DNA of 59,433 nt. Source: Azolla caroliniana (Eukaryota > Plantae > Polypodiophyta). The notes under the pieces were generated by a model. It was not told the DNA's origin, did not search any database, and saw only the letters and a list, made by a program, of their open reading frames with translations. A program made the translations under genes and the position numbers. Of the stretch, positions 1,295-40,437 are shown piece by piece. The stretch's first letter is position 1; the number at the start of each line of letters is the position of its first letter. The DNA is taken from positions 1 to 59,433 of the forward strand of contig JBHGNT010000179.1 of the NCBI GenBank assembly GCA_043228905.1, written 5' to 3'.

Positions 1295-4200
1295 TGTTAA
1301 GAGTCTATTATTAATCAATAGACCAATAAAGTAAAATAAATTGGATAGAAGAACTTGTTCCACCCAACCACCCCGAACTATGATCAAGACATAGCCAACC
1401 TACCACCTACGTCCCACATTGTTGTCGTGGAGGATTCCGGCAAAGTGGAGAAAAGCTTGTCGACTGTGTGTGAATAGGTGTGTGTACAGATGCACATAAA
1501 AAGAGTCCTTGTATAAACAAATGCAAATAAGTAGAGTATAATAAGTACAAGACATTGTGATTTAAATAGGTACTTTATTATCCCACAAAAAGAGGGCAAT
1601 TTAATAGAAGAACTTGATCCACACAACCACCCGAGCTATGATGAAGGAGGGGAAGAAGACCGTTATAAGAATCCATCATTTTGGAAGGGAGGGTGCTGCT
1701 AGTTTGCATGTGGAGTGTTTTGATTTTTTTATGTGTGCATTATGTGAGGGAAGGTGAGGCCTCTGCTCGCTTAGGAAGCTCGTGTGCTCCCGACTAGAGG
1801 CTCATCAATTTTGTGCGTGTGTCTGTAGAGCTCGAAGTTCCATCCCTACCCGAGGCCGCTAGTATTCCTGTCTGTCTTTGATACAGTAGTTGAATATTTT
1901 GGCATTGCTATATCTGGGTATTTTCCCTCTGTGTCCTTTGCCTTAGTCTCTCTGTGTAGCAATTGGATAGAAGAACCTGTTCCACACAACCACCCCAAGC
2001 TATGATCAAGACACAACCAACCTACCACCTATGTCCCATACCGTTGTCATGGAGGATTCTGGCAATGGGAAGAAAAACTCAGCGACCGTGTGTGAACGGG
2101 GGTGTGCACGTATGCACATCAAAAGAATCTTTGTATAAACAAATGTAAATAAGTAGAGTATATTAAGTATAAGACATTGTGATTTAAATAGGTTCGTTAT
2201 TATCCCACAAAAAGAGGGGAATAATAGGATGTGATGGAAGGAAATCGGGGGAGAGAATCGTTGACAGAAGCGGTTGTCATGAATGGTGACGTAACCGACC
2301 CTCCTTGGACTATGAAAGGAGGGGAGGAAGAACTTTATAAGAATCCATCGTTATGTAGGGGAAGGTGCTGCCGGTTGGATGTGGAGTGTCTTGGTTTTTT
2401 GCTGCGTGCATTCGGTGAGGGAAGGTGAGGCCTCTGCTCACATAGGAAGCTTGTGTGCTCCCGACCAGAGGTTCATCAGTTTTGTGCATGTGTTTATAGA
2501 GCTCGAAGCTCCATGCCGGCCCGAGAGCTCTTGTATTCTTCTCTATCTTTGATACATTAGTTAAATATTCTGGCATTGCTGTATCTGGGTATTTTCCCTC
2601 TGTGTCCTCTCTCTTAGTCTCTCTTTGTAGGAATTGGATAGAAGAACCTATTCCACACAACAACCCCGAGCTATGATCAAGACATGGCAAACCGACGAGC
2701 TACGTCCCATACCGTTGTTGTGGAGGATTCTGACAAAGTGGAGAAAAGCTTGTCGACTGCGTGTGAACGACTGTGTGTACAGAGTCACATAAAAAGATTC
2801 TTTGTATAAACAAATGCAAATACGTAGATTATAATAAGTACAAGACATTGTGATTTAAATAGGTACTTTATTATCCCACAAAAAGAGGGCAATTGGATAG
2901 AAGAACCTGATCCACACAACCAACCCGAGCTATGATCAAGGAGGGGAAGACGACCGTTATAAGAATCCATCATTTTGGAGGGGAAGGTGTTGCCGGTTTG
3001 CATGTGGAGTGTTTTGGTTTTTTGATGTGTGCATTTGGTGAGGGAAGGTGAGTCCTCTGGTCGCATAGGAAGCCCGTGTGCTCCCGACTAGAGGCTCATC
3101 AGTTTTGTGCGTGTGTCTGAAGAGCTTGAAGCTTCATCCTGGCCCGAGGCCGCTAGTATTCCTCTATGTCCTTGATACAGTAGTTGAATATTTTGGCATT
3201 GATATATCCAAGTATTTTCCTCTCTGCCCTCTTTCTTGGTCTCTCTTTGTAGCAATTGAATAGATCAAGGACCACCTCGAGCTATGATCAAGGAGGGGTG
3301 GAAGACCGTTATAAGAATCCATCGTTTTGGAAGGGAGGATACTGCCCGTTTGCATGTGGAGTGTTTTGATTTTTTTATGTGTGCATTTGGTGAGGGAAGG
3401 TGAGGCCTCTGCTCGCATAGGAAGACCGTGTGCTGCCGACCAGAGGCTCATCAGTTTTGTGCGTGTGTCTGTAGAGCTCGAAGCTTCATCCCGACCCGAG
3501 GCTACTAGTATTCCTCTCTGCCCTTGATACAATGGTTGAATATTTTGGCATTGATGTATCCAAGTATTTTCCCTCTGTGTCCTCTTTCTCGGTCTCTCTG
3601 TGTAGCAATTGGATAGAAGAACCTGTTCCACACAACCACCCCGAGCTATGATCAAGACATAGCCAACCTACCACCTACGTCCCATATTCTTGTCGTGGAG
3701 GATTCCGGCAAAGGGGAGAAAAGCTCGCTGACCGCGTGGGAACAGGGGTGTGCATGTATGCACATAAAAAGAGTGTTTGTATAAACAAATGTAAATAAGT
3801 AGAGTATAATAAGTACAAGACATTGTGATTTAAATAGGTTCGTTATTATCCCACAAAAAGAGGGGAATAAAAGGATGTGATGGAAGGAAATCGGGGGAGA
3901 GAATCATTGACAGAAGCGATTGTCATGGATGTTGATGTAACCGACCCTCCTTGGACTACAAAAGGAGGGGAGGAAGACCGTTATAAGAATCCATTGTTTT
4001 AAGGGGGAAGGTGCTGCCGGTTGCATGTGGAGTGTCTTGGTTTTTTTGCTGCGTGCATTCGGTGAGGGAAGGTGAGGCCTCTGCTCGTATAGGAAGCTCG
4101 CATAGGCCCGGGACTGCTTGTATTCTTCTCTATCTTTGATACATTAGTTGAATATTTTGGCATTGTTGTATCTGGGTATTTTCCCTCTGTGTCCTCTGTC

Positions 4201-4349
4201 TTAGTCTCTCTGTGTAGCAATTGGATAGAAGAACCTGTTCCACACAACCACCCTGAGCTATGATCAAGACATAACAAACCTACCACATATGTCTCATACC
4301 GTTGTCATGGAGGATTCCGGCAAAAGGGAGAAAAGCTCGCCGACCGCGT
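1295..4349. repeat. Modular tandem repeat (satellite) derived from a chromovirus LTR, left part; units ~610-670 bp
   Basis: Motif ttggatagaagaacctgttccacacaaccaccccgagctatgatcaag recurs at ~1341, 1601, 1963, 2634, 2892, 3609 and 4221; the start (tgttaagagtctatta, 1295) is the reverse complement of the LTR end at 21574. Confidence 0.85.
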
Positions 4350-5134
4350 TGTCGAGATATTACGCAAGTGCGTGTGGAAACGAGGCGGGACCGCGGGGGT
4401 CTCGAACCAAAGAGCAAGCGAGGGAAGAGACAGAGGGAGAACCGGCTACGCAGGACCGGGGATACACAGGGACACGGCCCTTCAGCACGGAGAACGCGAA
4501 CAGACACCGACACAGACAGATGCGAATGACTAAATATGTATATTAAGAAAAATGGCTAGCACGACTACAACCCCCGATGGGGCACAGGTTGGTTACAACC
4601 GAACAGGCCGGCGAACAGATGCCGATGCCTGTTCGCTTCGACGCACAAAGGGGGGTAGCAGGTCGGAGGTGCTGCCGGAAGCGCTCGGGCGTTCCTCGAA
4701 ACAGCGCGAGCCTCCTCGGAACCCTGCACAGAAAGCTATGGAGCTCAAGAAGGAAGGAAACAGAGAGAGAAGCGTCCAGAAACGGTCCGACAGCACTTCG
4801 TCCTCTCTGCGCGATCTGCCTGCAACAACTCTTTCCTGCTCTTATATAGCCCGACGAGCAGGCCGTCGTGTCAGCTTTATTCCCTGTCCCTTTCGAACAG
4901 GGATCCGCTCCGTTCTTCACGCATCCGCGTAGTTACGCCGCCGACTCGTACAGTTCGCGCGCGCGACCGAAAAGACTGTTCGCGCGGTCTTTGTCTCCAC
5001 TCGTGTTAGGGCCCGTTCCTGCCAATTATCCTCCTAATTCGCTTCTATGTACAACTTGGAGCGTGCGCGCGTGAAGAACCGGTTCCCGCGCCTTGGTGCG
5101 CCGATTCCGCTTATGGACGGTTTTCTTCACGACA
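4350..5134 (-). repeat. 3' LTR of G1
   Basis: Direct repeat of 10856-11640; tgtcg...cgaca termini; purine-rich tract adjacent on the minus strand (5135-5150). Confidence 0.95.
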
Positions 5135-5205: not shown

Positions 5206-8200
5206 TCATTCCTCGCCCGTCGGTTCTTCCTCGTTTTCGGATCGTTCGTCACTGCTGACCGGGAGAGCCGGGTCTGGCTCGTCGTCGTGTCGCTTCTTGA
5301 ACGCTTTGATCCGCTTCCCTGCAACCGGTATCGCCATTCTCGTGCCGTCGAGTTCCGCCAGGTGATATGTCCCGTTGTCATTGGCGCCCCGTACCACGTA
5401 AGGCCCGAACCACCTTCGTGCGAACTTCCGTGTAGCTCGGTGCTGGTTGTCGAGGCTGCTGTCGTAGACGAGCACCCAGTCACCTTCTTTGATTTTCTTC
5501 GGTCGGAGCCGGTGCGTTCGGTCGAACCTGGCTTTGTTCTTTTTCCTCGCCACCCGGAGCTTCTCCGCAGCCAGTTCCACGTCCTCCGGTCTCCGCTCGA
5601 GCTGTCGTATGCGCGCGGCCAACAACTCCTCCCGGCTCATCTCGTCCCTCCAGTCGACCATTGCCCACGAGGAGATCGTCCGTTCCATCGGCATGATCGG
5701 CTTCTGGCCGAACATGAGCTCCGTCGGCATGTACCCGGTTACCGAACTGTGCGTGGTCCGGTCTGCCCACAAAGCATAAGGTAGCAGCCGCGGCCAGTTA
5801 CCGACTCGGCCTCCGCATGCCCGAACCAACGCCTTGACGATCGGTCCGTGTCCGCGCTCCACCTTTCCATTCGCCTCCGGATTGTACGCCGTGGTGAGCG
5901 AGAGCTTGACTCCCAGCCGGTCGAACAGCTCCGCGGCTTCTTCGGCGTCCAACTCCCCTCGGTCAGCCACGATCTTCCCGACGCACCCGTACCGGCATAT
6001 CACGTCCTCGATTAGGAACCGGCATACGGCCGCGGTCGTTTTGTTCGGAAGGGCCCGGCCTTCCACCTGGTTCGTCAGATCCTCCCGCGCTAGGACCAGG
6101 TACCGCATCTGTCCTACCCCCATTGGCATCGTCACCAGATCTACCATCCATTTGAAGTGGATGGTCGGAGGGTACGTGGGGTGAAGCTCGTCCCGATGTC
6201 GGACTATGGAGTGCATCTGACAGCTCTCGCAAGTTGTCACGAACCGATGCACGTCCTGGTACTGCCCCGGCCACCAATACTTCCCCTTCAGTTTCTCAAA
6301 CGTAGCCCATGTTCCACGGTGTCCAGCCCAAGGGCTGTCGTGGTAGGCCGTCAGCAGCTCCTCCTGCTCTTCCCTCATCGCCACCACCCGGAGCGGAGCG
6401 CCGTCCCTCTTCTTCGGGTGCTTCCATAGATAGCCATCCCGGAGAAAGAACCGGTACGCTTTCTTCCGGATCCGGTTGGCCTCGTCCTTCGTCCATGACG
6501 CATCGGGCGTCATTGTCTTCAAAAACCCACCGATCTGCAGCCACTCCCCGTCGTACTTGCTCGCGTCGAAGTCGTTAAGCGCCGGAGTGCTTGTTCCGTC
6601 GGTTGTTACATACGCAGTCTCGAAGAAGTCCACGCCGACCTCTTCGTCCTCCGAAACCATGCCGCCCTCGTCATCGAATCTCGCCCTCGAAAGCATGTCG
6701 GCCATGGCGTTGTCTTTCCCGGAAATGTGTCGTATTTCCGGGTCCAGGGACTTGATGTACGCTATCCACCTGAGCATTGCCAGGTCCGGCGTCGCGCATC
6801 CGGAAACCATGCCGAGAATCGGCATGCAATCCGTCTCTATGATTACCTCCGTCCCGATCAGATAGTCCTTGTCGGCCTTCACCGCCGAAACGATACCCCA
6901 GAGTTCGCGTTTAACCTGGGCGTATCCGCGCTGCCGTTCGCTGAGGACCTTCGCGCCGAATCGGATCGGAAACCGATTGCCGTCCTCGTCTTCTTGGTTG
7001 ACGACCCACCCGATTCCGGTCGGGCTCGTGTCAACCGTTATGTACACTGGGGTGCCCTTCCTGTAGACGGCCTTTCGGAGCGCCGGTGCTGCCGAAAGAG
7101 CCTCCTTCAGCTTCCGGACCGACTCCGTGTGCTTGTCTAGCCATTCGAATCTTCGCCCTTTCTTCAATAATCCGTACAGCGGTTCCGCGACGTGCGCGTA
7201 ATGCGGGATCCATATGTGGTAGAAGGCGCATGCCCCCAAGAATCTTCGTACTTCCGTGACCGAGCTGCAATCAGGCTTCATCGCGGAGATGGCTTCTACC
7301 TTTGCCGGAGACGGTCTCCGGCCATACGGTCCACATAAATGTCCGACCACCATGATTTCCGACTGCCCGAAGGCTGACTTCTCCCCCGAGAAGGTGAGCC
7401 TCGCATCCTCTAGCCTTTGCAGCACCTTCTCGCAGTCGTCGATGTGCGTTACCACGAATCGCCGGCATCCGTCCGGCCCGATCGTCTCGTCCTTCTCTTC
7501 TACCGGGCATCCCTTGATCGGGATGTCGTCTAGAAACGGCATGGTGATGTCCGGGATGCAGTCCCTCAGCACCTTGTTCATTGCATTCACCATGTGGGCC
7601 ACCGAGTTGGTCCCTCCTTGCGGCAGCGTACACATCCGCACTAGGCCGAGGGGAGTTCGCATCGTCGTAATGTCTCTGCTCTCCACGGCTAGCTGGAACT
7701 GGTCGTACCCTGAATATAGATCACCGACCGAGTAAATCGACCTCCCGGCGAAGGCCTCCGCGAACTCGTCTATGGTCGGTCCGATCCCTGCGTTCCGAAT
7801 GGTCACCCTATTGACCGGTTGCAGGTCCTGAATGAAGCGCAATGATCCGTTTTTCTTTGGTACCGTAAACCACCGGTTCGAGTACGGGGCGCTCGACGGC
7901 TCGAGAATGCCCATATCAACTTTCTGCTTCAACAGCTCCATCAACTTCGGGATGTGAGCTCTCGGAACCGGAATTGGCTTGAGATTCCACGGTACATGCG
8001 GTACCGTGAATATCACCATCGGCTCTACGATCGTCGGGTCTACGCACCCGATTTCCTCCGGTGAGAATGCGAAGGCTTTCCCGTGCCTTCCGAGCATCCT
8101 CCGAAACCGGTCTTCCTCCACCGGCAGTAGGAACCTGCCCCCACCGATCTTCAGCTCGCGGAGCGTCTCGTTGGTGAAGGCGTGTCCTATGCAGGCCGGA

Positions 8201-8562
8201 TCTCGTAAGCTGGGGTCCGATGCAACCCCTTTGATTCGGGATTCGCTGCCCTCCGGTAAGGGCGCCGCAACTGGCCTCACCTTCCGGTCCACAGTCTTGT
8301 ACTTGGTGTTAACTCGGGCCGTCCGTTCCGACTCGAGCCCTCGACCGAAGTCCGCGATGACTTCGTACATTTCTTCGGAACATACCGGTATCGTCCGGTC
8401 TTCGATAAGGTCTTCTTCGACTACCCTCCCCAGCATTCCCAAGGTGTCGTCGAAGGAGACTGCCTCCACGGCTCCGTTGATTTCTTCGTCAGGGCCGAGA
8501 ACTCCGCACGCCCGAAGTCTCCCCTCCGTCTTTGTTTTCTCTCGGCCGGCGATGCCGACCAT
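5206..8562 (-). CDS. pol: G1 Pol polyprotein (RT, RNase H, integrase); frame stays open upstream to 8724 and overlaps the gag end
   Basis: 1118-aa ORF with LPQG and FLDD (RT), VDTS (RNase H), HHCC (HDSPWAGH...CESC) and DDE integrase; gypsy domain order. Confidence 0.95.
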   Translation of the reverse strand: MVGIAGREKTKTEGRLRACGVLGPDEEINGAVEAVSFDDTLGMLGRVVEEDLIEDRTIPVCSEEMYEVIADFGRGLESERTARVNTKYKTVDRKVRPVAAPLPEGSESRIKGVASDPSLRDPACIGHAFTNETLRELKIGGGRFLLPVEEDRFRRMLGRHGKAFAFSPEEIGCVDPTIVEPMVIFTVPHVPWNLKPIPVPRAHIPKLMELLKQKVDMGILEPSSAPYSNRWFTVPKKNGSLRFIQDLQPVNRVTIRNAGIGPTIDEFAEAFAGRSIYSVGDLYSGYDQFQLAVESRDITTMRTPLGLVRMCTLPQGGTNSVAHMVNAMNKVLRDCIPDITMPFLDDIPIKGCPVEEKDETIGPDGCRRFVVTHIDDCEKVLQRLEDARLTFSGEKSAFGQSEIMVVGHLCGPYGRRPSPAKVEAISAMKPDCSSVTEVRRFLGACAFYHIWIPHYAHVAEPLYGLLKKGRRFEWLDKHTESVRKLKEALSAAPALRKAVYRKGTPVYITVDTSPTGIGWVVNQEDEDGNRFPIRFGAKVLSERQRGYAQVKRELWGIVSAVKADKDYLIGTEVIIETDCMPILGMVSGCATPDLAMLRWIAYIKSLDPEIRHISGKDNAMADMLSRARFDDEGGMVSEDEEVGVDFFETAYVTTDGTSTPALNDFDASKYDGEWLQIGGFLKTMTPDASWTKDEANRIRKKAYRFFLRDGYLWKHPKKRDGAPLRVVAMREEQEELLTAYHDSPWAGHRGTWATFEKLKGKYWWPGQYQDVHRFVTTCESCQMHSIVRHRDELHPTYPPTIHFKWMVDLVTMPMGVGQMRYLVLAREDLTNQVEGRALPNKTTAAVCRFLIEDVICRYGCVGKIVADRGELDAEEAAELFDRLGVKLSLTTAYNPEANGKVERGHGPIVKALVRACGGRVGNWPRLLPYALWADRTTHSSVTGYMPTELMFGQKPIMPMERTISSWAMVDWRDEMSREELLAARIRQLERRPEDVELAAEKLRVARKKNKARFDRTHRLRPKKIKEGDWVLVYDSSLDNQHRATRKFARRWFGPYVVRGANDNGTYHLAELDGTRMAIPVAGKRIKAFKKRHDDEPDPALPVSSDERSENEEEPTGEE

Positions 8563-8628
8563 CGTACATGCTCCGCTGTCGGAGAAGCAAAATTTCCTAC
8601 CTATTGTACACGGTTTTATCGTACAGAT

Positions 8629-8694
8629 GTGGGGTTTTCCCGGAGCATCCGGACTGTCGCGGCCCCACGCCTTGGCAGTCCTCTCTAAAAATCC
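8629..8694 (-). promoter_or_regulatory. Putative -1 ribosomal frameshift signal (slippery GGAUUUU plus pseudoknot), G1
   Basis: G GAT TTT TAG at the gag stop; pol is in the -1 frame; 6 nt downstream are GGACTG/CAGTCC and GTGGGG/CCCCAC pairings. Confidence 0.75.
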
Positions 8695-10838
8695 TCTCGG
8701 TTTTCGGAACCGAGGGAGTCGCGGTTACGTTCGTGGTTCGGCCGTACCGTCAGAAACTGGACCGAATGGCGCCCGTCTTGGCTTTTGACCCTCGCGTAGG
8801 CCGAACCATTGTCCAGCACCTTGGTCTCCATCCGCGCCGCTGTGATGTACGGCTCTCCCAGTATGACCGGATGCGAAGACGTCTCCTGCACGAAGAAGTG
8901 CTGGTCAATCTCGACGTCGCCGATCTTGACTCGCACATTCGGACAGGCCCCGTGCAGCTCCTCGGTGGCGCGCGTTGCCACCCTTATTTTCCACCCGTGC
9001 TTGGTGTTGATCGGCCATTTGCCCTTCTTATAGAAGTCCATGGACATCAAGTTGATCTCCGATCCGTGGTCCACCAAAGCTATCACCGGTTCCTGGACAC
9101 CGCCGATCTTCACCGGGGTTTCCGTGGTCGCTCGGGCCCAGTGTGGTCTCGAATAGTGGCTTTCCGCCCACTCGTCTCCCAGCGCCATGTCGTCTAGGTG
9201 CGTCGTCTGCACTTCCACTGGTCTTTCCGGTTCTGTCTCCGTTGACAGCCTCTTCCGTTTCACCAAGTCCACGATGGAGTCGTGGAACTCCTTCTTGGCG
9301 ATTCCCAGCACCTCTCGTAACGACAGCTCCACCTTGCTGTCGAGGATCCGTTCCTCCAGGACCTTTCGTAAGTCCGTGGTCCTTTCTATCTCCGTCCCCA
9401 GACGGTACCCGCCCTTCTGGGGTTTATCTTTCGTACCGGCCCCGCCGGCTTCGTCCCGTCGTGGCCCGGACCGGGTCTCGTATCGTTGTGAGGGCCCGGT
9501 CGTCCCGGGTTTCCCCACCCGCTTCTCTTCTACCAGAGCCTCGTAGTTCTGGCAAGCGGCTTCCACGAAGCCCGTCCTTTCCTCGACCGGGTCGCTCCAC
9601 CCGGTCATCTCCCGTACCCGTTTCTCCGCGCGGTCCGATTCCTCCCCTTTTAGCCTTGCACCGGCAAGGCCTCCTAGCATCGTCGGCCAGAATCCGGCTT
9701 TGCTTTCCCTTCGGGCCTCGCCGCCCCCGACTCGAATGCCGGCCGACGCCGAGTAGTGGACGGTTTCCGCGTGTCGGGCCGCCGCCTCTTCCATCAACCT
9801 TTTCATACCACCTCGCCCGTTGTTTCGGCTCAGGGCCCTTCGGGTGTCGCTGGCATGCACCCGCCCTTCCCACAGGTACACCACCCTGTCCCTTAGCGCC
9901 TCCGCGAAGTCGCCGCAGTCATTCCGAATGTGGCCGACTTCATCGCACCACATGCACCTGTTTCCTGCCGCCGGCCGTCGGTCACGAGCCGGTTCGCCAC
10001 CTTCCCTTCGGGCTTGCGCGATTTGGAGGTCCTTTACCGCCCTCGTCAATTCCTCCAGCGCCGCTCCTCCGGTTGAGCCTCTGACTACGCCGGTCGAAGC
10101 CGAACCGGTTTCCAACCACTCTCGGGTCTCATCCTTTCGCACCTGTGGCGCTGGTTCGAACTTCCTTGCTGCGACCGAGCCCGACCCGGTTACCCCGTTA
10201 TCCGCCCATTCTCGCCGTTTGTCGAAACGGCCACAGACTTTCTTGACAGCCGCCCAGTCGGTAGTGAGCCCGTCTTCGGTTTCCAGCAAGAGGCCCACTT
10301 GCTCCCGATCCCGCTCGTCGACCGACTTGACAAACAGCAAGACCCGGCTCGTGTCCAGGATGGTTCGGTCGAGCGCCGAAAGGCGCGCAAAGTTTTCCTC
10401 GAACTCCCGGAGGAGTGCCGACGCGTTTCTTCCCTTCCCCGGGGACTCCACCCATTCCATGAACCTTCGCTTCGAAAGCCGGAGCGCGTCGTCCAGCCCG
10501 TATTTCTCTAGGAGCCGACCTTCGAACTCCTCCCAGGTACGGCTCTCCGCCCGCACCTCGAGCACCTCCGCATGGATGCTCGGCATTGCGACTCGGGGAA
10601 ATCCGGCAAGACGCCTTTCTTCCGGAATGTCCCGCATCAGCATTTCTGCACCGTAGGACGCCAGATACTTCGTGGCATCCCTCCCATCGAACCGGCCGAT
10701 CGTGCCGACGACCGCCTCGATAGCTCTGTCGAGGGCACCGGTGCCCTCGCGCGCATTTACAATCCGATCCACGGCCGAAGCCATGGCCTCTGCAAGATCC
10801 GACCCCCTCATCTTCTGCTCTTCTGCCGCCTCTTTCAC
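8685..10838 (-). CDS. gag: G1 Gag-protease
   Basis: 717-aa ORF; zinc knuckle CMWCDEVGHIRNDC; aspartic protease LVDHGSEINLM...VILGEPY; likely true ATG at 10811. Confidence 0.92.
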   Translation of the reverse strand: MKEAAEEQKMRGSDLAEAMASAVDRIVNAREGTGALDRAIEAVVGTIGRFDGRDATKYLASYGAEMLMRDIPEERRLAGFPRVAMPSIHAEVLEVRAESRTWEEFEGRLLEKYGLDDALRLSKRRFMEWVESPGKGRNASALLREFEENFARLSALDRTILDTSRVLLFVKSVDERDREQVGLLLETEDGLTTDWAAVKKVCGRFDKRREWADNGVTGSGSVAARKFEPAPQVRKDETREWLETGSASTGVVRGSTGGAALEELTRAVKDLQIAQARREGGEPARDRRPAAGNRCMWCDEVGHIRNDCGDFAEALRDRVVYLWEGRVHASDTRRALSRNNGRGGMKRLMEEAAARHAETVHYSASAGIRVGGGEARRESKAGFWPTMLGGLAGARLKGEESDRAEKRVREMTGWSDPVEERTGFVEAACQNYEALVEEKRVGKPGTTGPSQRYETRSGPRRDEAGGAGTKDKPQKGGYRLGTEIERTTDLRKVLEERILDSKVELSLREVLGIAKKEFHDSIVDLVKRKRLSTETEPERPVEVQTTHLDDMALGDEWAESHYSRPHWARATTETPVKIGGVQEPVIALVDHGSEINLMSMDFYKKGKWPINTKHGWKIRVATRATEELHGACPNVRVKIGDVEIDQHFFVQETSSHPVILGEPYITAARMETKVLDNGSAYARVKSQDGRHSVQFLTVRPNHERNRDSLGSENREDF

Positions 10839-10851
10839 GTCGGGTTCACCA
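10834..10851 (-). promoter_or_regulatory. Primer-binding site complementary to tRNA-Trp 3' end
   Basis: Plus strand ttcacgtcgggttcacca matches the 3' 18 nt (including CCA) of plant cytosolic tRNA-Trp as recalled; 4 nt from the LTR. Confidence 0.85.
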
Positions 10852-10855
10852 AAGA

Positions 10856-11640
10856 TGTCGAGATATTACGCAAGTGCGTGTGGAAACGAGGCGGGACCGC
10901 GGGGGTCTCGAACCAAAGAGCAAGCGAGGGAAGAGACAGAGGGAGAACCGGCTACGCAGGACCGGGGATACACAGGGACACGGCCCTTCAGCACGGAGAA
11001 CGCGAACAGACACCGACACAGACAGATGCGAATGACTAAATATGTATATTAAGAAAAATGGCTAGCACGACTACAACCCCCGATGGGGCACAGGTTGGTT
11101 ACAACCGAACAGGCCGGCGAACAGATGCCGATGCCTGTTCGCTTCGACGCACAAAGGGGGGTAGCAGGTCGGAGGTGCTGCCGGAAGCGCTCGGGCGTTC
11201 CTCGAAACAGCGCGAGCCTCCTCGGAACCCTGCACAGAAAGCTATGGAGCTCAAGAAGGAAGGAAACAGAGAGAGAAGCGTCCAGAAACGGTCCGACAGC
11301 ACTTCGTCCTCTCTGCGCGATCTGCCTGCAACAGCTCTTTCCTGCTCTTATATAGCCCGACGAGCAGGCCGTCGTGTCAGCTTTATTCCCTGTCCCTTTC
11401 GAACAGGGATCCGCTCCGTTCTTCACGCATCCGCGTAGTTACGCCGCCGACTCGTACAGTTCGCGCGCGCGACCGAAAAGACTGTTCGCGCGGTCTTTGT
11501 CTCCACTCGTGTTAGGGCCCGTTCCTGCCAATTATCCTCCTAATTCGCTTCTATGTACAACTTGGAGCGTGCGCGCGTGAAGAACCGGTTCCCGCGCCTT
11601 GGTGCGCCGATTCCGCTTATGGACGGTTTTCTTCACGACA
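10856..11640 (-). repeat. 5' LTR of G1
   Basis: Direct repeat of 4350-5134, adjacent to the PBS. Confidence 0.95.
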
Positions 11641-12076
11641 GCGTGTGAATGGGGGTGTGCATAGATGCACATAAAAAGAGTCTTTGTATAAACAAATGTA
11701 AATAAGTTGAGTATAATAAGTACAAGATATTGTGATTTAAATAGGTACTTTATTATCCCAGAAGAAAAGGTGAATTGGATAGAAGAATCTGTTCCAGACA
11801 ACCACCCCGAGCTATGATCAAGATATAGCCAACCACCCTAGCTATGATCAAGGAGGGGAGGAAGACCGTTATAAGCATCCATCGATTTGGAGGGGAAGGT
11901 GGTGCCAATTTTCATGTGGAGTGTTTTGGTTTTTTGCTATGTGCATTCGGTGAGGGAAGGTGAGGCCTCTGCTCGCGTAGGAAGCCCGTGTGATCCCGAC
12001 TAGAGGCTCATTGGTTTTGTGCGTGTGTCTGTAGAGTTTAAAGCTCCGTCTCTGGCCCAAGGCCGGTTGTATTCTT
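11641..12076. repeat. Continuation of the LTR-derived satellite after the G1 insertion
   Basis: Resumes the interrupted unit exactly (cgaccGCGT|gtgaatggggg) and contains the same A and B modules. Confidence 0.85.
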
Positions 12077-13225
12077 TGTTAAGAAGGCGCTACAGCTCTT
12101 CTTAGTGCAGTGGCATATCGTGATGTGCAGGATTGTTTAGGTTTCAAAGGAAGAGAGAAAGGAAGGGGGAAGGAGACTCACGTCTGTAACAACCCAAAAA
12201 ATGTTCTTTTTCATTACATAGAAAAACCTCTCTCTTCTTCTGACGTTACTGTCCTACTCACTCTTAGTTCTTTTACCTAAGTATATAAGTGATTTACATA
12301 TTCAACTAATTGGTTGTGAGTAGCTAATTAGGAACGAGTAGCTAAATAGTTGTGAACAGGTAAATAACTATTTTACTTATAACTATAGTAGTTAATTTCC
12401 TAATAGCTACTATAGAAGATCTCAGTTACCAATAAGCATCACATGCTTTTGTTGAACATGTTTCTTAACACTCCCCCTCAAGCTCAACTTGTCCATTCTT
12501 AAAATAATCTTCAGTCTTCTTTCCTTCATACTTTCCAACTATCATACCAATGCTTTTAACTCCCATCATGTCCCTGAACCGTGTATTTGTTTCTATGCTT
12601 AGTCCCTTCATAAGAATGTTAGCAACTTGTTGATTTGTACTTACATACAACAGATCCACTTCTCTAACAAAGTGAAAATGCACTTTAATGTGCTTTGTTC
12701 TTGCATGGAACACTAGGTTTTTTGCGAGCTAAATACTGCTCATATTGTGACACCAAATTGTGCTTGCATCATCTATATACTCTCCCAAATAAGCAAACAA
12801 TTTTTTGATCCAAACTTCTTCATAAGTAGCTATTGCAACTCCTCTATATTCAGCTTCAGTACTTGATAATGCGACAATAGCTTGTTTCTTGCTACTCCAT
12901 GAAATAACTGCACTTCCCAATGTAAACATATATCCACTCGTGGATCTTCTATTAGTTTTGCTTCCAACCCAATCAACATTTGTATATCCTTCTAACTTTA
13001 TGTCCACATCAGCCCTGTAAAATTGTTCATAGTTTTTAGTAGCTTTTACATACCTCAAAATTCTTCTAATACCGTTGGCAATTGCATAAACTGGCTGGCT
13101 AATCCAACTGCATAACTTAAATCAAGTCTTGTTATAGTCAAGTATATGAGGCTACCCACCATAGACCTGTACATGTTCACATCTGCAATTTCTACTCCCA
13201 AATCAGCCCTAAATTTGCAGTTCTT
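12077..13225 (-). mobile_element. Truncated AT-rich Ty1/copia 3' end: LTR 12077-12470, PPT, degenerate RNase H and RT end
   Basis: LTR with 9-bp inverted termini tgttaagaa/ttcttaaca; PPT ctccccctca at 12471; ORFs 12729..13058 (SWSSKKQAIVALSSTEAEY) and 12465..12713 (FHARTKHIKVHFHFVRE). Confidence 0.88.
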
Positions 13226-14406: not shown

Positions 14407-16788
14407 TGTCACATGACGACAAGATTTGAACTCTTGACCTCTTGTATATGGTCAAGTGTTGTGTTCTAACCAACACATCCAAATATATGGTCATGTTATG
14501 TATATCTTAGTACATTATTAGTAGATTATCTATTTCAAGTTCTAGGAGTTTTTAGAAAGTTCTAGAATGAGAAGGTTCTAGAGGGTTCTAGAATATTCTC
14601 CGGAATATTCTAATGCATGTACTTCGAATCACAGTATAAATACTTGTAACCTCCTTGGTCCCTTTCAAGGGATTCAACATTAGTCATTGACACATCAATA
14701 TAGTGTTCTCGTTTCACCCCATCTTGTCTCCTTGACTTCTATCTCTTTCTTCCTCGTCACTTCTAGCTCAAGTTCACAACCTGTTGCTCATAGTCCCATC
14801 ATCCGTGCTCCGTCCTAGTCTGCACTTGGTGTGTTTGTGACAGTTTGAATCCCTTCAAACTAGAAGCATTACCCATCTTCATCATCGCCCTTGCTTCTAG
14901 AGTTACCATTGTCACTGTCATTGGTTCTAGCGTTACCATCATCAACATCCCTTCGTTTTCTCTCTTCCTCGCTATCTCTATCTCTTAGTTTCTTTTCGTC
15001 ATCGTCTTTGTCTTTTCTCTCCTAGTTTCTTCTCATCTCTATCTCCTAGTTTTTTCTCATCCTTCACTTCTCTATCTCCTAGTTTCTTCTCACCATCATC
15101 TCTATCTCTGCAATTCTTATCATCTTCCACATCCCTATCTTGCATTTTTTGTCATTGTTATCCTTGTCCTTGTGTTTCCTACCGCTTTCATCTCTATCTA
15201 TGTGTTTCTTATTATCTTTGTCACTTTCCTTGCATTTCCTATCACCTTCATCCCTATCTTTGTGTTTTCTATCATCCTTTGTATATGTGTCTTTGTGTTT
15301 CTTCAGAACCTCAACATCTCGATCTCTATGTTTCTTATCCTCTTCATCTCTTTCTCCGCTTCCATCATTGCCATAGTCAAAGTCATTGCTTCCAAAGTTG
15401 CTTCATCAACATCATTGCCTTCATTGCTTCATGTTCGACATCATCATCTTCAACCCTCTTGTTGTCATCATCAACACTACTTTGCCTAGCCGTCATTGTT
15501 GTCAAGTGTTCCAGTTCTCGGTGAGGACCGTGCAGGGTTGCTCACATCCATTGGTGTTTGTGTCTCCGGTGAGGACCACACATGGTCGGTCATGCCCTTT
15601 GGTGTTCGCATCTCCGGTGAGGACCGTACATGGTCTCTCACGCTCGTTGGTGTTTCAGTTCTCGGTGAGGACCGCACATGGTCGCTCACATCCATTGGTG
15701 TTCGTGTCTCCGGTGAGGATTGCACATGGTTGCTCACGCCCATTGGTGTTCTAGTTCCCGGTGAGGACCGCACATGGTTGCTCCTTTCCATTAGTGTTCG
15801 TGTCTTCGGTGAGGACCATACATGGTCTCTCATGCCCGTTGGTGTTCGTGTCTCCGGTGAGGACCGCACATCGTTGCTCACGTCCGTTGGTGTTCCAATT
15901 CCTGGTGAGGATTGCACATGGTCGCTCACGCCAATTGGTGTTGTTCTCTTTGGTGAGAACCGCACATGGTTGTTCACTCATGTTGGTGTTCCTATCTCCG
16001 GTGAGGCCCGTACATGGTCGCTCACACTCACGTTTGTGTTCTAGTCTCCGGTGAGGACTGCACATGGTCGCTCACACTCATGTTGGTGGCCCAGTTTCCA
16101 GTGAGGACCAGACATGGTCGCTCACACTCACGTTGGTGTTCCATTCTCCGGTGAGGACCGAACATGGTTTCTCACGCTCACATTGGTGTCCAGTCTCCGG
16201 TGACGACCACACATGGTTGCTTGTGTTCACCCGTGCTCCTATTTCTGGTGAGGACTGCTCATAGTCACTCACATCTCAACATACTTTGGTTTTCCCTTTC
16301 GGCTCACCCCTACACCACACATTCGAAAAGGTGGCCGTAAAGAGGGGGATAATGTCACAGACATGACAAAAAGATTTGAACTCTTGTATATAGTCAATTG
16401 TTGTGTTCTAACCAACACATCCAAATATATGGTCATGTTATGTATATCTTAGTACATTATTAGTAGATTATCTATTTCAAGTTCTAGGAGTTTTTAGAAA
16501 GTTCTAGAACTAGAAGGTTCTAGAGGGTTCTAGGATATTCTCCCGAATATTCTAATGCATGTACTTCGACTTGACACAATATAAATACTTGTAAACTCCT
16601 TGGTCCCTTTCAAGGGATTCAACGCCAGTCATTGACACATCAATATAGTGTTCTCGTTTCGCCCCATCTTGTCTCCTTGTGTTTTATCTCTTTCTTCCTC
16701 GTCACTTCTAGCTCCAAGTTCACAACCCGTTGCTCATAGTCCCATCATCCATGCTCTGTCCTAGTTTGCGCTTGGTGTGTCCGTGACA
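14407..16788 (+). mobile_element. Non-autonomous LTR retroelement (Tcn1/Tf1-like LTRs, no retroviral coding domains)
   Basis: LTRs 14407-14842 and 16353-16788 (tgtcac...gtgaca); TSD ccatt/ccatc; PPT aagagggggataa at 16340-16352; the ~1.5-kb interior is low-complexity sequence plus a tandem array. Confidence 0.9.
15505..16270. repeat. 48-bp tandem array (~16 copies; later units ~50 bp)
   Basis: ggtgaggac core at 15520, 15568, 15616, 15664 and onward to ~16247; 16-aa periodicity in ORFs 15496..16044 and 15486..15977. Confidence 0.92.
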
Positions 16789-23015: not shown

Positions 23016-23805
23016 TGTAAAAACAAATAGCATGCGGAAGCAATAGGAAACCGAACACAGAAACACAGGTTTAAAGGAGAGCTTGACAGTACGCGGGAGA
23101 GACAGAGAAGGAGCAGAATAAGTTTGATCCATTTCAAAACAATAATAGTTCTCTCTACATGAAACGTTGTCGAGCCCTTCGGCTCCGGATCGTTGCGTGA
23201 GTCGGGTGGGAACCGCCGAGGTTTTGGACTAGGAGGAAGAGGAATACAACTTAAGGCTAGTTATGAATAATAGGAAGAGAAGTAAGATAGTAATCTCGTG
23301 AATCCCACGAGTTTAGTGTATTTTAAAACAATATTTAGATTATAAGAGTAATTTAGATGGCAAAATTCGTGAATCCCACGAATATATATTAGATTGATCA
23401 ATTCTTCTATATTAATCAACAACCATATACATATTTTTCTCCTCCTTATATAAAGATGGAAGAGGCTAAGCATGGCTTCATGCTTTTTCGCCTAAAGTGC
23501 CCATGCACACTAAATGTGAATGTGATGCTTTGTCATTTCCTAAATATAGGGCTCATGCACGCTAGATGTGCATGAGTCACTTTTAATGTCACGTGTAAAT
23601 AAAATATTCACACTCTAAAGAATACATGATTTTTACCTTTTAATAAAGGTATGTGTAAATAAAGGTCTTATACGTATTAAATCTATAAATGGTAAAGTTG
23701 GGGTTTATCTACGTGGAGGTGCATGGTTCGAATCTTGCCCTATGCACGTGATAAATTCTTTTGATATATTATTTATTTATTTATATGTATCTAAAATCGG
23801 ATATA

Positions 23806-26800
23806 TTATTTTATGGTTTTCACGTAGTGTGTGGAATACACTACGACATTCGCCCCCTCCGAACCCGCACATCCTCCGGTATGTGCCGAAGTTCTCGATC
23901 CCCCATATCCGCCTTCACCCAAAGCTTCCTCCGATTCTCCCCTTATGTCGACTATGAGTTGTAATTCACTTTCTTCGCTTCCCGCATCACCGTGGTCTTC
24001 GTCCGATTGCTCCTCGTTGTCGGCCTTGGCTTGGATCACATAGGGTTTGTCGTCGGTCCGCTTCTTGAAAATCTTCACCCGCTTCCCGGCTGTAGGCACT
24101 CGTAGTATTGTTCCATCCAACTCGGACAGTCGGTACGTTCCGTTGTCGAAGACTTTCCGAACCTCGTATGGCCCGAACCACCTTTTCGCGAATTTCCGCA
24201 TCGTTGTATGTTGATGGTCCAAACTACTGTCATAGACGATCACCCAATCTCCTTTTTCAATCCTCCTCGGTCGTAGTCGGTGCTTTGTGTCAAACCGGCT
24301 TTTGTTCCTTAATCGTGCTTCTTGTTGTCGGCGTATTGCTTCCGCTATGTCTGCCGGTCTTCCCTCTAGTTGTCGTATCCGGACCGCTAGTAGTTCTTCC
24401 CGGCTCATCTCTTCCTTCCACGGTAGCACTGTCCATGTTGCGATCGCGGTTTCCGTCGGCATTACCGGTGCTTGTCCGGTCATGAGTTCTGCCGGCATGT
24501 AACCGGTTATGGAACTATGCGTCGTCCGATCCGCCCATAGTGCATACGGAAGCATCTGCGGCCAGTCCTTCACCTTTCCATCGCATGCCTTCGCAAGTGC
24601 TTTCACGATCAGACTATGTCCTCGTTCGATTTTCCCGTTGGCCTCCGGATTGTATGCCGTTGTCAGCGATAACCGAACTTCGTGTTTAGCGAAGAATCCC
24701 CTAGCTTTGTCCGAGTCGAGTTCTCCCCGGTCCGCAATCACTTGTCCTACGCACCCGTACCTGCAAAATACTTCCTCCAAAAGAAATTGGCATACCGCGG
24801 AACACGTTTTCCTCTGAAGCGCTCGACCTTCTACTTGATTCGTGAGATCTTCCCGAGCTAATACCAAGTATTTCTTTTGTCCGATCCCGATCGGCATGGC
24901 CACTATGTCAACCATCCACTTGAAGTTGATTGTCGGTGAGAATGTCGGATGTAACTCATCTCGATGTCGAACCCCGGAGTAGACTTGACATTTCTCGCAG
25001 CTTTCCGTGAACTCCGCGACATCTTTGTACATTTTCTTCCACCAATATTTTTGCTTGATCTTCACAAATGTTGCCCATGTTCCTCGGTGTCCAGCCCAAT
25101 CGGATTCGTGAAACTCGGACATTATCCGGTTTCGTTGCTCTTTTGTCCCGACTACTCGAAGTGGTATACCATCCGGTCTTTTCGGCGCCCTCCATATTAA
25201 TCCGTTTTCCAAGAAGAACTTTTGGACTTGTCTCTTCTTCCTTCGGATCTCGGCTCTTCTTCCTTTATCGTTTGTTGAATCCTCGGCCTCTTGTAACATC
25301 TTCCCGATCATCAAGATTTCTCCCTCGTATTCTTCTTCTCGGAATTCCCGGATTACGTTTACTCGGCATATGTGCTCTGACGTGAAGTAGTCTTCGGAAA
25401 CTTCTTCATTATCCGATTCGGTTATGTCGTCTCCGAACCGAGCCCTTGATAACATATCCGCTACCGCATTGTCCTTCCCCGAGATGTGTCGAACCTCCGG
25501 ATTAAGCGACTTGACATATGTAACCCACCTTAGCATAGCTACATCCGGTATCGTACAACGCCGCATCATCCCGAGTATCGGAAGACAATCCGTCTCGATC
25601 ACCACTTCGGCTCCGATCAAATAATCCCGATCCGATTTTATCGCCGACACGACTCCCCACAGTTCTCTTTTGACTTGCGCATATCCACGTTGCCTTTCGT
25701 TGAGAACCTTTGCTCCGAATCGGATCGGATACCGCGAACCATCCGAGTCGGCTTGATTGATGACCCACCCGATACCGGTTGGACTTGTATCAACCGTTAC
25801 TATGATCGGTCGGTCATAGCTCGGTTTCTTAAGTGCTTCCGCCCTCCGAAGTGTCTTCTTCAATTTCTTCATGGCTTTGGTGTGTTCTGGTTTCCATTCA
25901 AATTTCTTACCTTTCCGCAACAAGTGGTAGAGTGGATCCGCTATATGTGCATAGTGCGGAATCCATATGTGATAGAATGCACATGCACCGAGAAACCTTC
26001 GGACTTTGGATGTTGACTCGCATACTTCCTCCATAGCTCGAATCGCATCGATCTTTGTTGGTGACGGTCTTCGGCCGTAGGGCCCACATAGATGTCCGAC
26101 CACCAATATTTCTTCTTGCCCGAATGCCGATTTCTCCCCGGAAAGTGTTAGGTGCACATCTTCTAGCTTTCGCAACACTTTCTCGCAATCATGAATATGG
26201 TCGACCACGAACTTTCGGCATCCCCGATCATCCATAGTCTCATCTTTTTCTTCTACCGCGCATCCTTTCATCGGAATGTCATCGAGGAACGGCATCGTTA
26301 TCTCCGGAATGCAGTCTCGAAGCACCTTGTTCATCGCGTTCATCATATGAGCAACCGAGTTTGTCGCTCCTTGTGGTAGTGTGCACATTCGGACTAATCC
26401 TATCGGTGTTCGCATGGTTGTGATGTCTCGGCTCTCCACGGCTAGTTGGAATTGGTCATACCCCGAGTATAGGTCTCCGATGGAGTATATCGCATGACCG
26501 GCAAAAGCTTCCGCAAATTCGTCCACTATCGGACCGACTCCCGAGTTCCGGATCGTGACCTTATTCACCGGTTGCAAGTCTTGGATAAATCGGAGTGACC
26601 CATTCTTCTTCGGAACCGTAAACCATCGATTTGAGTACGGAGCAGTTGATGGCTCTAGAATCCCCATCGCCACCTTCTCCTTGAGCAAGTCAATGACTTT
26701 TGGAATATGCGCTCGTGGCACCGGAATCGGCTTCAGGTTCCACGGTACATGGTCAATCGTGAAGATCACCATCGGCTCCACTGTTCTCGGATCGACGCAC

Positions 26801-27540
26801 CCTATCTCCCTTGATGTAAATGCAAACGCTTTGCCGTGTTGCTCCAACATCTCGCGAAACCGTTCTTCTTCTTTTTGTAATAGGAACCCACCTCCACCGA
26901 TCCGAAGTTTCTTCCGGGTCTCATCCGTGAAGGCATGTCCGATATCCACGGTCTTCCGAAGTGTCGGATCTCCCGAGACTTCTTTCCTCTTTTGTTCGCT
27001 ATCGGCGGGTAGTGGTCCCGCGGCCGGTTTCACCTTCTTCTCCATGGTCTTGTATTTCGTACTTACCATTGCTTCTTCTTTGCGGAGCGTATCCGGCTCC
27101 ATTTTCGCAATGATCTCGTACATCTCGACCGATTCCACCGGGACTACCCGGTTCCCTTGGCTTTTATCTTCCGCAAGTTCTTCAAGTCGTTGTAGCGTGC
27201 TCCCATAGAACACTTCTTCGACTATCCCCACGATTTCTTCATCTTCTTTTATTATTGATGCCGACCGCAACTTATCCTCCACTTGTCGGTATCCTTTCTT
27301 CAATCCTCCGGTTACGGTTGTGTACGTAGATGCCCCATCCGGACCTATTCGTACATGTTTTGCTCCGAGAGTTTTCTTCCTGTGTGGGGTATCAGGGCTT
27401 CTCGGACTATCACTTCCCCACTCCGCAACAGTCCGCTTTAAAAATCCATTCTCACTTGGGACAAGAGTTCGCTCTTGTTCCTTTCGTGATTTGCTGGCAC
27501 CGTTAGGAATTTGACGGATTTCCCACCGTTTTGGCTCCAA
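23806..27540 (-). CDS. pol: G2 Pol polyprotein (RT, RNase H, integrase)
   Basis: 1244-aa open frame with the same LPQG/FLDD, HHCC and DDE motifs as G1 Pol; overlaps the gag end in the -1 frame. Confidence 0.95.
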   Translation of the reverse strand: MEPKRWEIRQIPNGASKSRKEQERTLVPSENGFLKRTVAEWGSDSPRSPDTPHRKKTLGAKHVRIGPDGASTYTTVTGGLKKGYRQVEDKLRSASIIKEDEEIVGIVEEVFYGSTLQRLEELAEDKSQGNRVVPVESVEMYEIIAKMEPDTLRKEEAMVSTKYKTMEKKVKPAAGPLPADSEQKRKEVSGDPTLRKTVDIGHAFTDETRKKLRIGGGGFLLQKEEERFREMLEQHGKAFAFTSREIGCVDPRTVEPMVIFTIDHVPWNLKPIPVPRAHIPKVIDLLKEKVAMGILEPSTAPYSNRWFTVPKKNGSLRFIQDLQPVNKVTIRNSGVGPIVDEFAEAFAGHAIYSIGDLYSGYDQFQLAVESRDITTMRTPIGLVRMCTLPQGATNSVAHMMNAMNKVLRDCIPEITMPFLDDIPMKGCAVEEKDETMDDRGCRKFVVDHIHDCEKVLRKLEDVHLTLSGEKSAFGQEEILVVGHLCGPYGRRPSPTKIDAIRAMEEVCESTSKVRRFLGACAFYHIWIPHYAHIADPLYHLLRKGKKFEWKPEHTKAMKKLKKTLRRAEALKKPSYDRPIIVTVDTSPTGIGWVINQADSDGSRYPIRFGAKVLNERQRGYAQVKRELWGVVSAIKSDRDYLIGAEVVIETDCLPILGMMRRCTIPDVAMLRWVTYVKSLNPEVRHISGKDNAVADMLSRARFGDDITESDNEEVSEDYFTSEHICRVNVIREFREEEYEGEILMIGKMLQEAEDSTNDKGRRAEIRRKKRQVQKFFLENGLIWRAPKRPDGIPLRVVGTKEQRNRIMSEFHESDWAGHRGTWATFVKIKQKYWWKKMYKDVAEFTESCEKCQVYSGVRHRDELHPTFSPTINFKWMVDIVAMPIGIGQKKYLVLAREDLTNQVEGRALQRKTCSAVCQFLLEEVFCRYGCVGQVIADRGELDSDKARGFFAKHEVRLSLTTAYNPEANGKIERGHSLIVKALAKACDGKVKDWPQMLPYALWADRTTHSSITGYMPAELMTGQAPVMPTETAIATWTVLPWKEEMSREELLAVRIRQLEGRPADIAEAIRRQQEARLRNKSRFDTKHRLRPRRIEKGDWVIVYDSSLDHQHTTMRKFAKRWFGPYEVRKVFDNGTYRLSELDGTILRVPTAGKRVKIFKKRTDDKPYVIQAKADNEEQSDEDHGDAGSEESELQLIVDIRGESEEALGEGGYGGSRTSAHTGGCAGSEGANVVVYSTHYVKTIK
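27384..27447 (-). promoter_or_regulatory. Putative -1 ribosomal frameshift signal (GGAUUUU plus pseudoknot), G2
   Basis: G GAT TTT TAA at the gag stop; 6-nt spacer; GGACTGTTGC/GTGATAGTCC stem; GTGGGG/CCCCAC second stem. Confidence 0.75.
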
Positions 27541-29501: not shown

Positions 29502-29514
29502 GTCGGGTTCACCA
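29497..29514 (-). promoter_or_regulatory. tRNA-Trp primer-binding site of G2
   Basis: Identical 18-mer to the G1 PBS, again 4 nt from the LTR. Confidence 0.85.
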
Positions 29515-30751
29515 ACTGTGTCGAGCCCTTCGGCTCCGGATCGTTGCGTGAGTCGGGTGGGAACCGCCGAGGTTTTGGACTAGGAGGAAGAGGAATACAA
29601 CTTAAGGCTAGTTATGAATAATAGGAAGAGAAGTAAGATAGTAATCTCGTGAATCCCACGAGTGTAGTGTATTTTAAAACAATATTTAGATTATAAGAGT
29701 AATTTAGATGGCAAAATTCGTGAATCCCACGAATATATATTAGATTGATCAATTCTTCTATATTAATCAACAACCATATACATATTTTTCTCCTCCTTAT
29801 ATAAAGATGGAAGAGGCTAAGCATGGCTTCATGCTTTTTCGCCTAAAGTGCCCATGCACACTAAATGTGCATGTGATGCTTTGTCATTTCCTAAATATAG
29901 GGCTCATGCACGCTAGATGTGCATGAGTCACTTTTAATGTCACGTGTAAATAAAATATTCACACTCTAAAGAATACATGATTTTTACCTTTTAATAAAGG
30001 TATGTGTAAATAAAGGTCTTATACGTATTAAATCTATATTTATAACACTAAAGATAAATTATTACAATGGTAAAGTTGGGTTTATCTACGTGGAGGTGCA
30101 TGGTTCGAATCTTGCCCTATGCACGTGATAAATTCTTTTGATATATTATTTATTTATTTATATGTATCTAAAATCGGATATATTATTTTATGGTTTTCAC
30201 GTAGTGTGTGGAATACACTATGACAACGTGCTCAACAACACTATTTATACAAGTTCTAAGAGGACTGACAGAAGTACCGCGTACTTCAATGCTCACTTGA
30301 GCGTCTGACACTAACTACGAGACTATTAACTACCTAGTAGTCTAGGCTACTAATAGACTTCCGATTATTGTTTGGTCTAGCTAACCGGCTCCCCAGCTCA
30401 CCGGTTCAATGGCTCGCCGGCTCACCGATCCGGCTTCATCCTTCCGGATGTCGATCCGGCTCAGGCTTATTCAGCCGATCCAGATCCGGTTGAGCTTGCC
30501 GCACAACACTCCCCCTCAAGCTCAACTTAAGGTCGGATCATAGTGTCAGTCTCCATGGCCGCCGGTCCTTCCACCCGGCTCCTTCGAGCATCACTCCACC
30601 TCGATCGCGCTCCTCGTCCGGTTCGGTTCCGTTTGATGCGACCCTTCTGATTTTGCGCACCTCGACCTCCTCGATCGGCTTGTTTGCTCAACGGGCCTAA
30701 TTCAACTCCCTCGCTGCTGTGACTTCGGCTCTTGTCAACCCGTTGGTTCCT

Positions 30752-34112: not shown

Positions 34113-34563
34113 TATTAGAGATTAGGTACTAAAGTAAGCATAAAATAAGGATATATCAATGATAGATCTAGAAAGAATAGAGAGAAAAGAGAGAAAGAAG
34201 GGTGCCGATCCACCCGACCACCCCCGAGCGAAGGGATCGAGACGGACTCGAGCCTCGATCGGCGTCCCATACCACCGCCTTGGCGTCGAGTCGTACCTGG
34301 ACGATAGCGCGCTTGCTACAAGAGTCGTTCCACTCACGGACAGAGTCTCGACGTAGTCAATGCATGCCCCAATGAGGGTAGCTAGGCCTCTTATTTATAG
34401 TAATTCTCAAGGCCCCCAGCCATGTTCACACTTGGCCTCATGGGTTGTCTCAATCCCGAGGATTAAAAGTAATCCTCCCCTTCTTTAGACTCTTTGTTTA
34501 ACCCTCACACTTATCCACGTGTATAGAATACTACGACAATTCTCACCACGGGATATTATATGG

Positions 34564-40189: not shown

Positions 40190-40437
40190 AATCGAGGCAT
40201 ATACCTCTACGCACACGAAACATCCGAAAATAAGGTTAAGCGTAATTCGCAATTGAGGTATTGACCTCTTACGCATAGTAAATCCAACGCATATCATTTC
40301 GAACGAATCGAGGTATTGACCTCGTACGCGAACGTAACATATGTTCGTGAACGTAATACGCAATTGAGGTAGTAACCTCGTACGCATACGACACTCATCA
40401 CATATGATTTATATGTCAAACGAGGTATTGACCTCGT
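40190..40437. repeat. Five spaced copies of a hairpin motif GAGGT-ATTG-ACCTC in the 5' UTR of element D
   Basis: Motif starts at 40194, 40255, 40310, 40366 and 40422 (spacing 55-61 bp). Confidence 0.75.

Follow-up and report, generated by a model that had tools for sequence, protein, structure and literature searches.

A conserved and very probable -1 ribosomal frameshift signal between Gag-protease and Pol in a Phygy-type Ty3/gypsy retrotransposon of Azolla caroliniana

In a 59,433-nt stretch of Azolla caroliniana DNA (contig JBHGNT010000179.1, hereafter the window), a compact 66-nt cassette lies on the minus strand between the Gag-protease (Gag-PR) and Pol reading frames of the LTR retrotransposon G1, and is in all likelihood a programmed -1 ribosomal frameshift signal conserved across the family of this Phygy-type element. 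What can be read directly is the ORF layout, the relation between the two frames, the conservation at the nucleotide level and the covariation of the cassette. The cassette is real and conserved, and very likely functional. A sequence-only reading of the same DNA had proposed this cassette, and its heptamer, stop codon, spacer and both stems were all recovered at the coordinates first noted, on the minus strand, which had been left unstated (Table 1). Likewise, the pol frame, announced as open in the -1 register from 8724, is open from there to 5206 over 1172 aa and is also open back across the slip site. The programmed frameshift then suggested has gained support, as the comparisons below yielded no in-frame copy among 62 loci with both genes, no splice joint in RNA reads of low depth and a covarying predicted structure.

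G1 is a Ty3/gypsy element by its LTRs, its primer-binding site, its purine-rich tract and the order PR-RT-RH-INT of its domains. With near-identical LTRs (one difference), a target-site duplication and two intact ORFs, it represents a recent insertion. The coding region fills the interior of the element, pol ending 71 nt short of the 3' LTR, and no chromodomain was matched in pol. The primer-binding site may be of the tRNA-Trp type expected of the Phygy lineage (see below), and no tRNA-Trp matching it was found in the loci searched (60 of 80 scanned). Of a more descriptive nature, the gag frame of G1 is open through this site into the 5' LTR (10835-10865, minus strand), and some database members have their start AUG in the same region, nine codons ahead of the first AUG of G1. 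The element sits inside an array of 350-970-nt repeats which continues on either side (1339-4349 and 11641-12137).

Regarding the Gag-PR protein, DUF4100 was the sole Pfam match and a PDB sequence search found nothing. An AlphaFold model (mean pLDDT 66.5, residues 561-660 mostly at 75-89) matched Ddi1 and retroviral proteases in Foldseek, and the matched part is taken to be the C-terminal beta-strand domain of the model, which carries a D-H-G-S motif (region 9086-9101, minus strand). The usual protease motif is D-T/S-G; the histidine of D-H-G-S recurs widely among the relatives, some distant members having D-S-G, D-G-G or D-A-G.

A second element of the window, G2, spans 23168-30225, with LTRs at 23168-23848 and 29519-30225 and the target duplication ACGT, and its pol is 64% identical to that of G1. 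Within the window, the cassette pattern matches G1 and G2 only. Owing to the shorter loop 3 of G2, the 3' arm of its stem 2 lies in a different codon phase from that of G1.

Table 1. Coordinates in the window of the cassette, of the reading frames of G1 and of related features.
Feature	Position	Strand	Remarks
Gag-protease ORF	8685..10865	minus	726 codons stop to stop; first AUG 10811; ends ENREDF*; DUF4100
pol ORF	5206..8724	minus	-1 frame, 1172 aa: ~130-aa linker, RT, RNase H, integrase
5' LTR of G1, 785 nt	10856..11640	minus	target-site duplication GCGT
3' LTR of G1	4350..5134	minus	one difference from 5' LTR (1/785 nt)
Primer-binding site	10835..10851	minus	same 16-mer in 35/42 loci with enough upstream DNA
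Slippery heptamer G_GAU_UUU (GGATTTT), last two gag codons Asp-Phe	8688..8694	minus	from sequence; codon spelling kept in 67/68 DF-ending loci
UAG stop of Gag-PR ORF	8685..8687	minus	also first half of the 6-nt spacer (8687-8682)
Stem 1, 5' arm GGACTG	8676..8681	minus	family core reaches two nt further, to 8674
Stem 1, 3' arm CAGTCC	8651..8656	minus	family core reaches 8658
Stem 2, 5' arm GTGGGG	8663..8668	minus	within the stem-1 loop
Stem 2, 3' arm CCCCAC	8629..8634	minus	pairs with the 8663..8668 arm
G2 copy of cassette	27382..27447	minus	loop 3 shorter by 2 nt than in G1

The structure predicted for G1 is an H-type pseudoknot placed 6 nt past the heptamer, which is inside the 5-9 nt range for -1 stimulators, with loops of 7, 6 and 16 nt. 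Stem 1 is slightly weakened in this copy (6 bp, a C.A mismatch and one further pair, against 8-9 bp in most relatives). When the junction is folded alone without pseudoknots, its energy is ordinary (z -0.08), and stem 1 is present in the MFE and centroid structures alike. The pseudoknot score of G1 is 33, a value matched by 2 of 500 shuffles, and Rfam holds no relevant family for the cassette.

To place the cassette in its family, 82 loci were collected by protein similarity to Gag-PR, independently of the cassette and including the best 80 of 167 metagenome matches; most of them share one contig-name prefix and are collapsed assemblies. With G1 and G2 the survey holds 84 entries, the gag stop being reached in 80 and RT also in 62. 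In these 62, which span protease, gag stop and RT, pol sits in the -1 frame with respect to gag in 59 and in the +1 frame in three, and the single-frame arrangement that the sequence-only reading had named as contrary evidence occurs in none. Of the 80 loci with a stop, 71 carry an in-phase heptamer, at the gag stop or five codons earlier; 69 of these have enough downstream DNA and reduce to 50 distinct junctions (44 with G_GAU_UUU and two each with G_GAU_UUC, G_GGU_UUU and G_GUU_UUU), the canonical G_GGU_UUU being carried by L075 and L076. When loci are defined by the Asp-Phe peptide alone, the Asp codon is GAU in 68/68, vs 57% GAU elsewhere in gag, and the base ahead of it is G in 67/68, across 12 different preceding amino acids. 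Because GAU is fixed and G is fixed whatever amino acid precedes, the constraint on the slip site appears to act on the nucleotides and not on the peptide. The nine stop-containing loci with no in-frame heptamer (L012, L020, L023, L058, L067, L073, L077, L080 and L082) were excluded from the structure counts; those inspected look decayed, shifted or truncated.

The same ending is seen in proteins. Out of 120 homologues, 74 end in F preceded by D, G or N and 24 have F preceded by D or G five residues before the end, the remainder comprising two that end in QVFx, 14 that run on and six that are truncated or without anchor motif; more distant representatives often have the same C-terminal ending as the family. 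In a subgroup of loci (L063, L071, L072, L075 and L076), the gag stop lies five codons past the slip site, in or just after the 5' arm of stem 1, and Gag ends in Pro-Leu or similar, as do the 24 proteins above. Slippage on CCU_UUA was considered for these Pro-Leu-ending Gags and rejected: these Gags end on the codons CCA UUG or CUA UUA, with the slip site five codons upstream. No relatives were found among viral contigs. Phygy-type sequence is also present within two assemblies of bacterial genomes (L081, whose cassette is complete, and L082), probably as plant DNA contamination.

Conservation of the predicted structure is clearest for stem 1. Its core of eight pairs is paired in 386 of the 400 cells offered by the 50 junctions, and controls with slid partners pair at 23-44% vs 85% for stem 1. 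Compensatory changes on both sides were found at 8 of the 10 pairs tested, a level reached by none of 500 shuffles, these covariation counts being inflated by the relatedness of the junctions. On the tree, two separate clades show the change from A-U to G-C at pair 3, and the change from U-A to C-G at pair 5 falls in separate branches. Stem 2 resists gap-free alignment and was scored per element against its own arm; loop 3 varies from 11 to 20 nt across the family and changes codon phase. Divergent 5' arms do fit their own 3' partner (GCGAGA/UCUCGC, GCAGGGA/UCCUUGC, AUGAGGGU/ACCCUCAU). The mean own-arm score is 16.1, vs 11.1 in 531 downstream windows (69 of which reach the level of 16.1) and 11.9 in shuffles (13% reach), and in 38 of 50 junctions the own arm scores higher than swapped arms do on average. 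Taken alone, stem 2 therefore stands only moderately above chance and is less well supported than stem 1. When both stems are scored jointly, the G1 level of 33 is reached by 43 of the 50 distinct junctions vs 13 of 571 windows taken at random from these loci. Thus, the covariation check on family members that the sequence-only reading had advised supports stem 1 and, more weakly, stem 2.

In the mechanism that we propose, most ribosomes would end at the UAG and release Gag-PR. In a minority, held up by the pseudoknot while tRNA-Asp and tRNA-Phe occupy GAU UUU, these tRNAs would re-pair with GGA UUU, and translation would continue as ...REDF/LERTAKAWG to produce Gag-PR-linker-RT-RH-IN. Frameshifting would hence set the ratio of structural to enzymatic products, and Pol would be packaged via its Gag part.

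Both retroviral and plant viral systems offer points of comparison. The protease of Rous sarcoma virus is encoded in gag. Among retroviral signals, the one of this virus is the closest in layout, with a heptamer and a pseudoknot at the end of gag and Gag-Pol as the minority product (PMC5009743). G1 differs from it by another heptamer, by a compact two-stem knot without a third stem and by the ~130-aa linker before RT, as well as by being a plant retrotransposon with no env. The G1 heptamer deviates from the strict X_XXY_YYZ pattern, and G_GAU_UUU supports -1 shifting in wheat-germ extract for the umbravirus PEMV2, with a stop nearby (PMC4737148). GGAUUUU had been put forward as a used -1 heptamer, which holds for PEMV2 and four other umbraviruses, whereas the example then given, red clover necrotic mosaic virus, was not found in the available part of that paper (PMC4737148). 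PEMV2 and G1 have in common an identical heptamer, a stop at or just after it, a spacer of 5-6 nt and plant ribosomes (PMC4737148); the stimulator of PEMV2 is a bulged hairpin with long-distance 3' pairing, whereas a local H-type pseudoknot is predicted for G1. As far as sequence allows the comparison, the putative G1 signal resembles retroviral and umbraviral -1 signals in every criterion.

As to plant retrotransposons, the statement of the sequence-only reading that the protease usually lies on the pol side has to be amended, a gag-side protease being common (Ogre, Retand) (PMC6317226). Like G1, Ogre and Retand keep Gag and Pol in distinct ORFs with the protease on the Gag side, followed in their case by a stop or a spacer, while Tcn1, Selgy and SIRE, which also have separate Gag and Pol ORFs, possess overlapping frames with the overlap ahead of the protease; the 2019 lineage table, in the portion available, lists no overlap placed after the protease (PMC6317226). 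In one Arabidopsis copy of ATGP3, pol occupies the -1 frame, which a 2024 preprint terms the first evidence of possible frameshifting for gypsy elements of this plant (bioRxiv 2024.04.02.587720); it is unlike G1 in being a single copy whose protease belongs to the pol side. A 2016 review, drawing on a survey of 2003, names only two plant types with separate frames, both +1 (PMC5009743), and PMC5580714 deals with Copia splicing. In the literature searched, most subscription journals lying outside it, there was no report of the cassette in this lineage nor of a -2 gag-pol shift in a retrotransposon, in agreement with the earlier remark that such a signal was not known as characterised for these elements. 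The mechanism itself is a known one, the classical -1 shift; the lineage and the position are those for which we found no description.

Other explanations of the frame break can be envisioned. Pol could be made from a spliced or separate subgenomic mRNA, the structure serving splicing, packaging or dimerisation, as in Ogre, where a spliced intron separates GAG-PROT and RT (PMC6317226); gene models of Riccia do span the junction. We regard this possibility as very unlikely, since it leaves the fixed G_GAU_UUU spelling and the spacer unexplained and the pol frame runs open as far back as the heptamer, the other two frames containing 2-18 stops in the next 110 codons (in loci selected for a pol frame open over at least 500 codons). 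Moreover, 246 RNA reads from a related organism (73, 49 and 124, from ~12% of three runs) cross the junction unspliced; they are sparse (depth ~7-20, both orientations) and, at this low depth, contain neither a splice joint nor a slip-site indel, so that the splicing across the junction which the sequence-only reading had set against its own proposal is not seen. As to Riccia, the 14 longer single-chain fused proteins are all gene models from this organism, and the 12 of 14 that were listed have inconsistent join points and skip the DF junction, which fits introns predicted in gene models. The frameshift layout would explain such false introns, or DUF4100 hypothetical proteins, from gene callers. 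Somewhat less probable again is slippage of a polymerase on the U5 run that follows GA, generating a minority of in-frame templates, with the structure stimulating the polymerase and not the ribosome. Structure-stimulated slippage of reverse transcriptase does exist (PMC5737552), yet the U run is broken (UUC) in L052, L053, L055 and L063, the G_GAU codon phase is retained, and no slip-site indel occurs in the RNA reads (low depth) or, at a threshold of at least 3%, in contigs of DNA from four runs (between 4108 and 6505 pieces per run). In these contigs, the single indel at or above this threshold is a 9-nt insertion at 8610 and, among the substitutions listed, a common stem-1 variant changes an A-U pair to G-U.

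A free Pol protein produced by termination-reinitiation or internal initiation would agree with a pseudoknot placed after the stop, as in Candida Tca2 (PMC2194720), and two loci discussed below, L051 and L054, have a pol-frame AUG shortly ahead of the gag stop. This possibility appears slighter still: the -1 elements have no positionally conserved AUG, their first pol-frame Met falling at codon 2 to 110, and an AUG of the frame and position seen in L051 and L054 is present in 17 of the 48 other junctions, where it is not in the pol frame. Least credible is the view that a single-ORF element was broken by a chance mutation or that the break is an error of sequencing. Two other elements of the window show similar-looking single breaks, but the family refutes this view for G1, the same break and cassette recurring in the 64%-identical G2 and family-wide, with none of 62 loci in frame. 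Programmed -1 frameshifting is thus the reading retained here.

Regarding classification, elements of the Phygy lineage are described as having a target duplication of 4 bp (NCGN) and short non-coding regions, and as lacking any extra domain (Neumann et al., 2019, PMC6317226). G1 and G2 share these features, their duplications GCGT and ACGT fitting NCGN, and named Gag-PR homologues are found in Physcomitrium, Riccia and Adiantum, those of Physcomitrium being a further point in common with Phygy. At 7291 and 7058 bp, G1 and G2 are just below the published Phygy range of 7656-9968 bp, which is descriptive and drawn from one moss species; they are therefore filed as Phygy-type and not as proven members. 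The ORF organisation of Phygy is listed as ND ("not determined"), and the available portions of the main text and supplement table mention no recoding signal for it (PMC6317226); nor do the available portions of PMC6911290 and PMC11963269, in which Phygy is mentioned.

One clade departs from the -1 layout. The loci L051 (2836-2910) and L054 (2498-2572), corresponding to proteins P0023 and P0027, group with support 100/100 in a tree of 37 of the 43 long-pol-frame loci (duplicates removed), and have G_GUU_UUU as slip site, a kept pseudoknot and pol in the -2/+1 frame. They read CAG GUU UUU followed by stem 1 after 5 nt, one less than the spacer of their -1 relatives, and the predicted pseudoknot, with 10 bp in stem 1 and 8 bp in stem 2, is in its usual register to pol. 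The -1 frame shuts within 1 and 6 codons and is also shut just upstream, while the -2/+1 frame is open over 1153 and 1100 codons. Their pol sequences are 82% identical, with dS 1.03 and dN/dS 0.10, which indicates that the layout has persisted through a long, selected divergence. Among proteins, the ending is QVFD in 6 of the 15 members listed for one cluster and QVFY in 2 of the 4 in the other; the remaining members are fragments. The case comprises two DNA loci, both from collapsed assemblies, and the L051 contig has an earlier gag stop. A third candidate, the +1 locus L078, was rejected as a decayed copy: its cassette is the usual G_GAU_UUU one, its protease is interrupted by a stop and its pol ORF begins 202 nt late.

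The same pseudoknot might drive -2 slippage on G_GUU_UUU in this clade, a reading that the sequences favour by a modest degree. G_GUU_UUU is the -2 site of PRRSV and SHFV (PMC6675879), and -2 shifting works best when the spacer is 1-2 nt shorter than for -1 shifting, a rule which the 5-nt spacer of L051 and L054 fits (PMC3458567). However, stem 1 can be extended by one base 5' in 19 of the 50 junctions, blurring the contrast between spacers of 5 and 6 nt. Instead of a -2 shift, +1 shifting or reinitiation at the nearby AUG may operate; an AUG of this frame and position is common by chance (19 of 50 junctions). With the -2/-1 site of arterivirus nsp2TF, the two loci have in common an identical heptamer, the same codon phase and a downstream ORF in the -2 frame; the arterivirus signal depends on nsp1-beta and PCBP together with a C-rich motif placed 10 nt downstream (PMC6675879), whereas in L051 and L054 a predicted pseudoknot 5 nt downstream occupies the place of that motif. 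The L051/L054 signal is hence like the arterivirus one at the slip site, but it is not a member of arterivirus-type -2 frameshifting. Should the -2 reading be true, these loci would represent a -2 gag-pol shift in a retroelement, and the switch in this clade a natural, selected case of the spacer-tension rule known from engineered reporters. With their relatives, they would form a natural -1/-2 pair on one pseudoknot scaffold. The wider proposition that a lineage of mosses, liverworts and ferns makes Pol through a pseudoknot-driven frameshift after the protease, and that one of its clades has switched from -1 to -2, we hold at even chances.

How the ratio of Gag to Pol is set in plant Ty3/gypsy elements is poorly understood, and the cassette provides a lineage-wide, covarying case. 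G1 is young enough to be active, and its 66-nt cassette is directly testable in plant extracts.

Finally, the window contains further repeats. A third gypsy-type element (34113-41161, minus strand), with 465-nt LTRs that are 100% identical, has protease and RT in different frames (+1); the frame break, near 37595 at an 8-A run and with no pseudoknot noticed, is probably a homopolymer indel. In a Copia-type element (42407-47802, plus strand), the RT region is split into two overlapping ORFs near 46290, which looks like a single indel. At 15458-16224, a tandem array of 48-50-nt units contains long repetitive ORFs on both strands.
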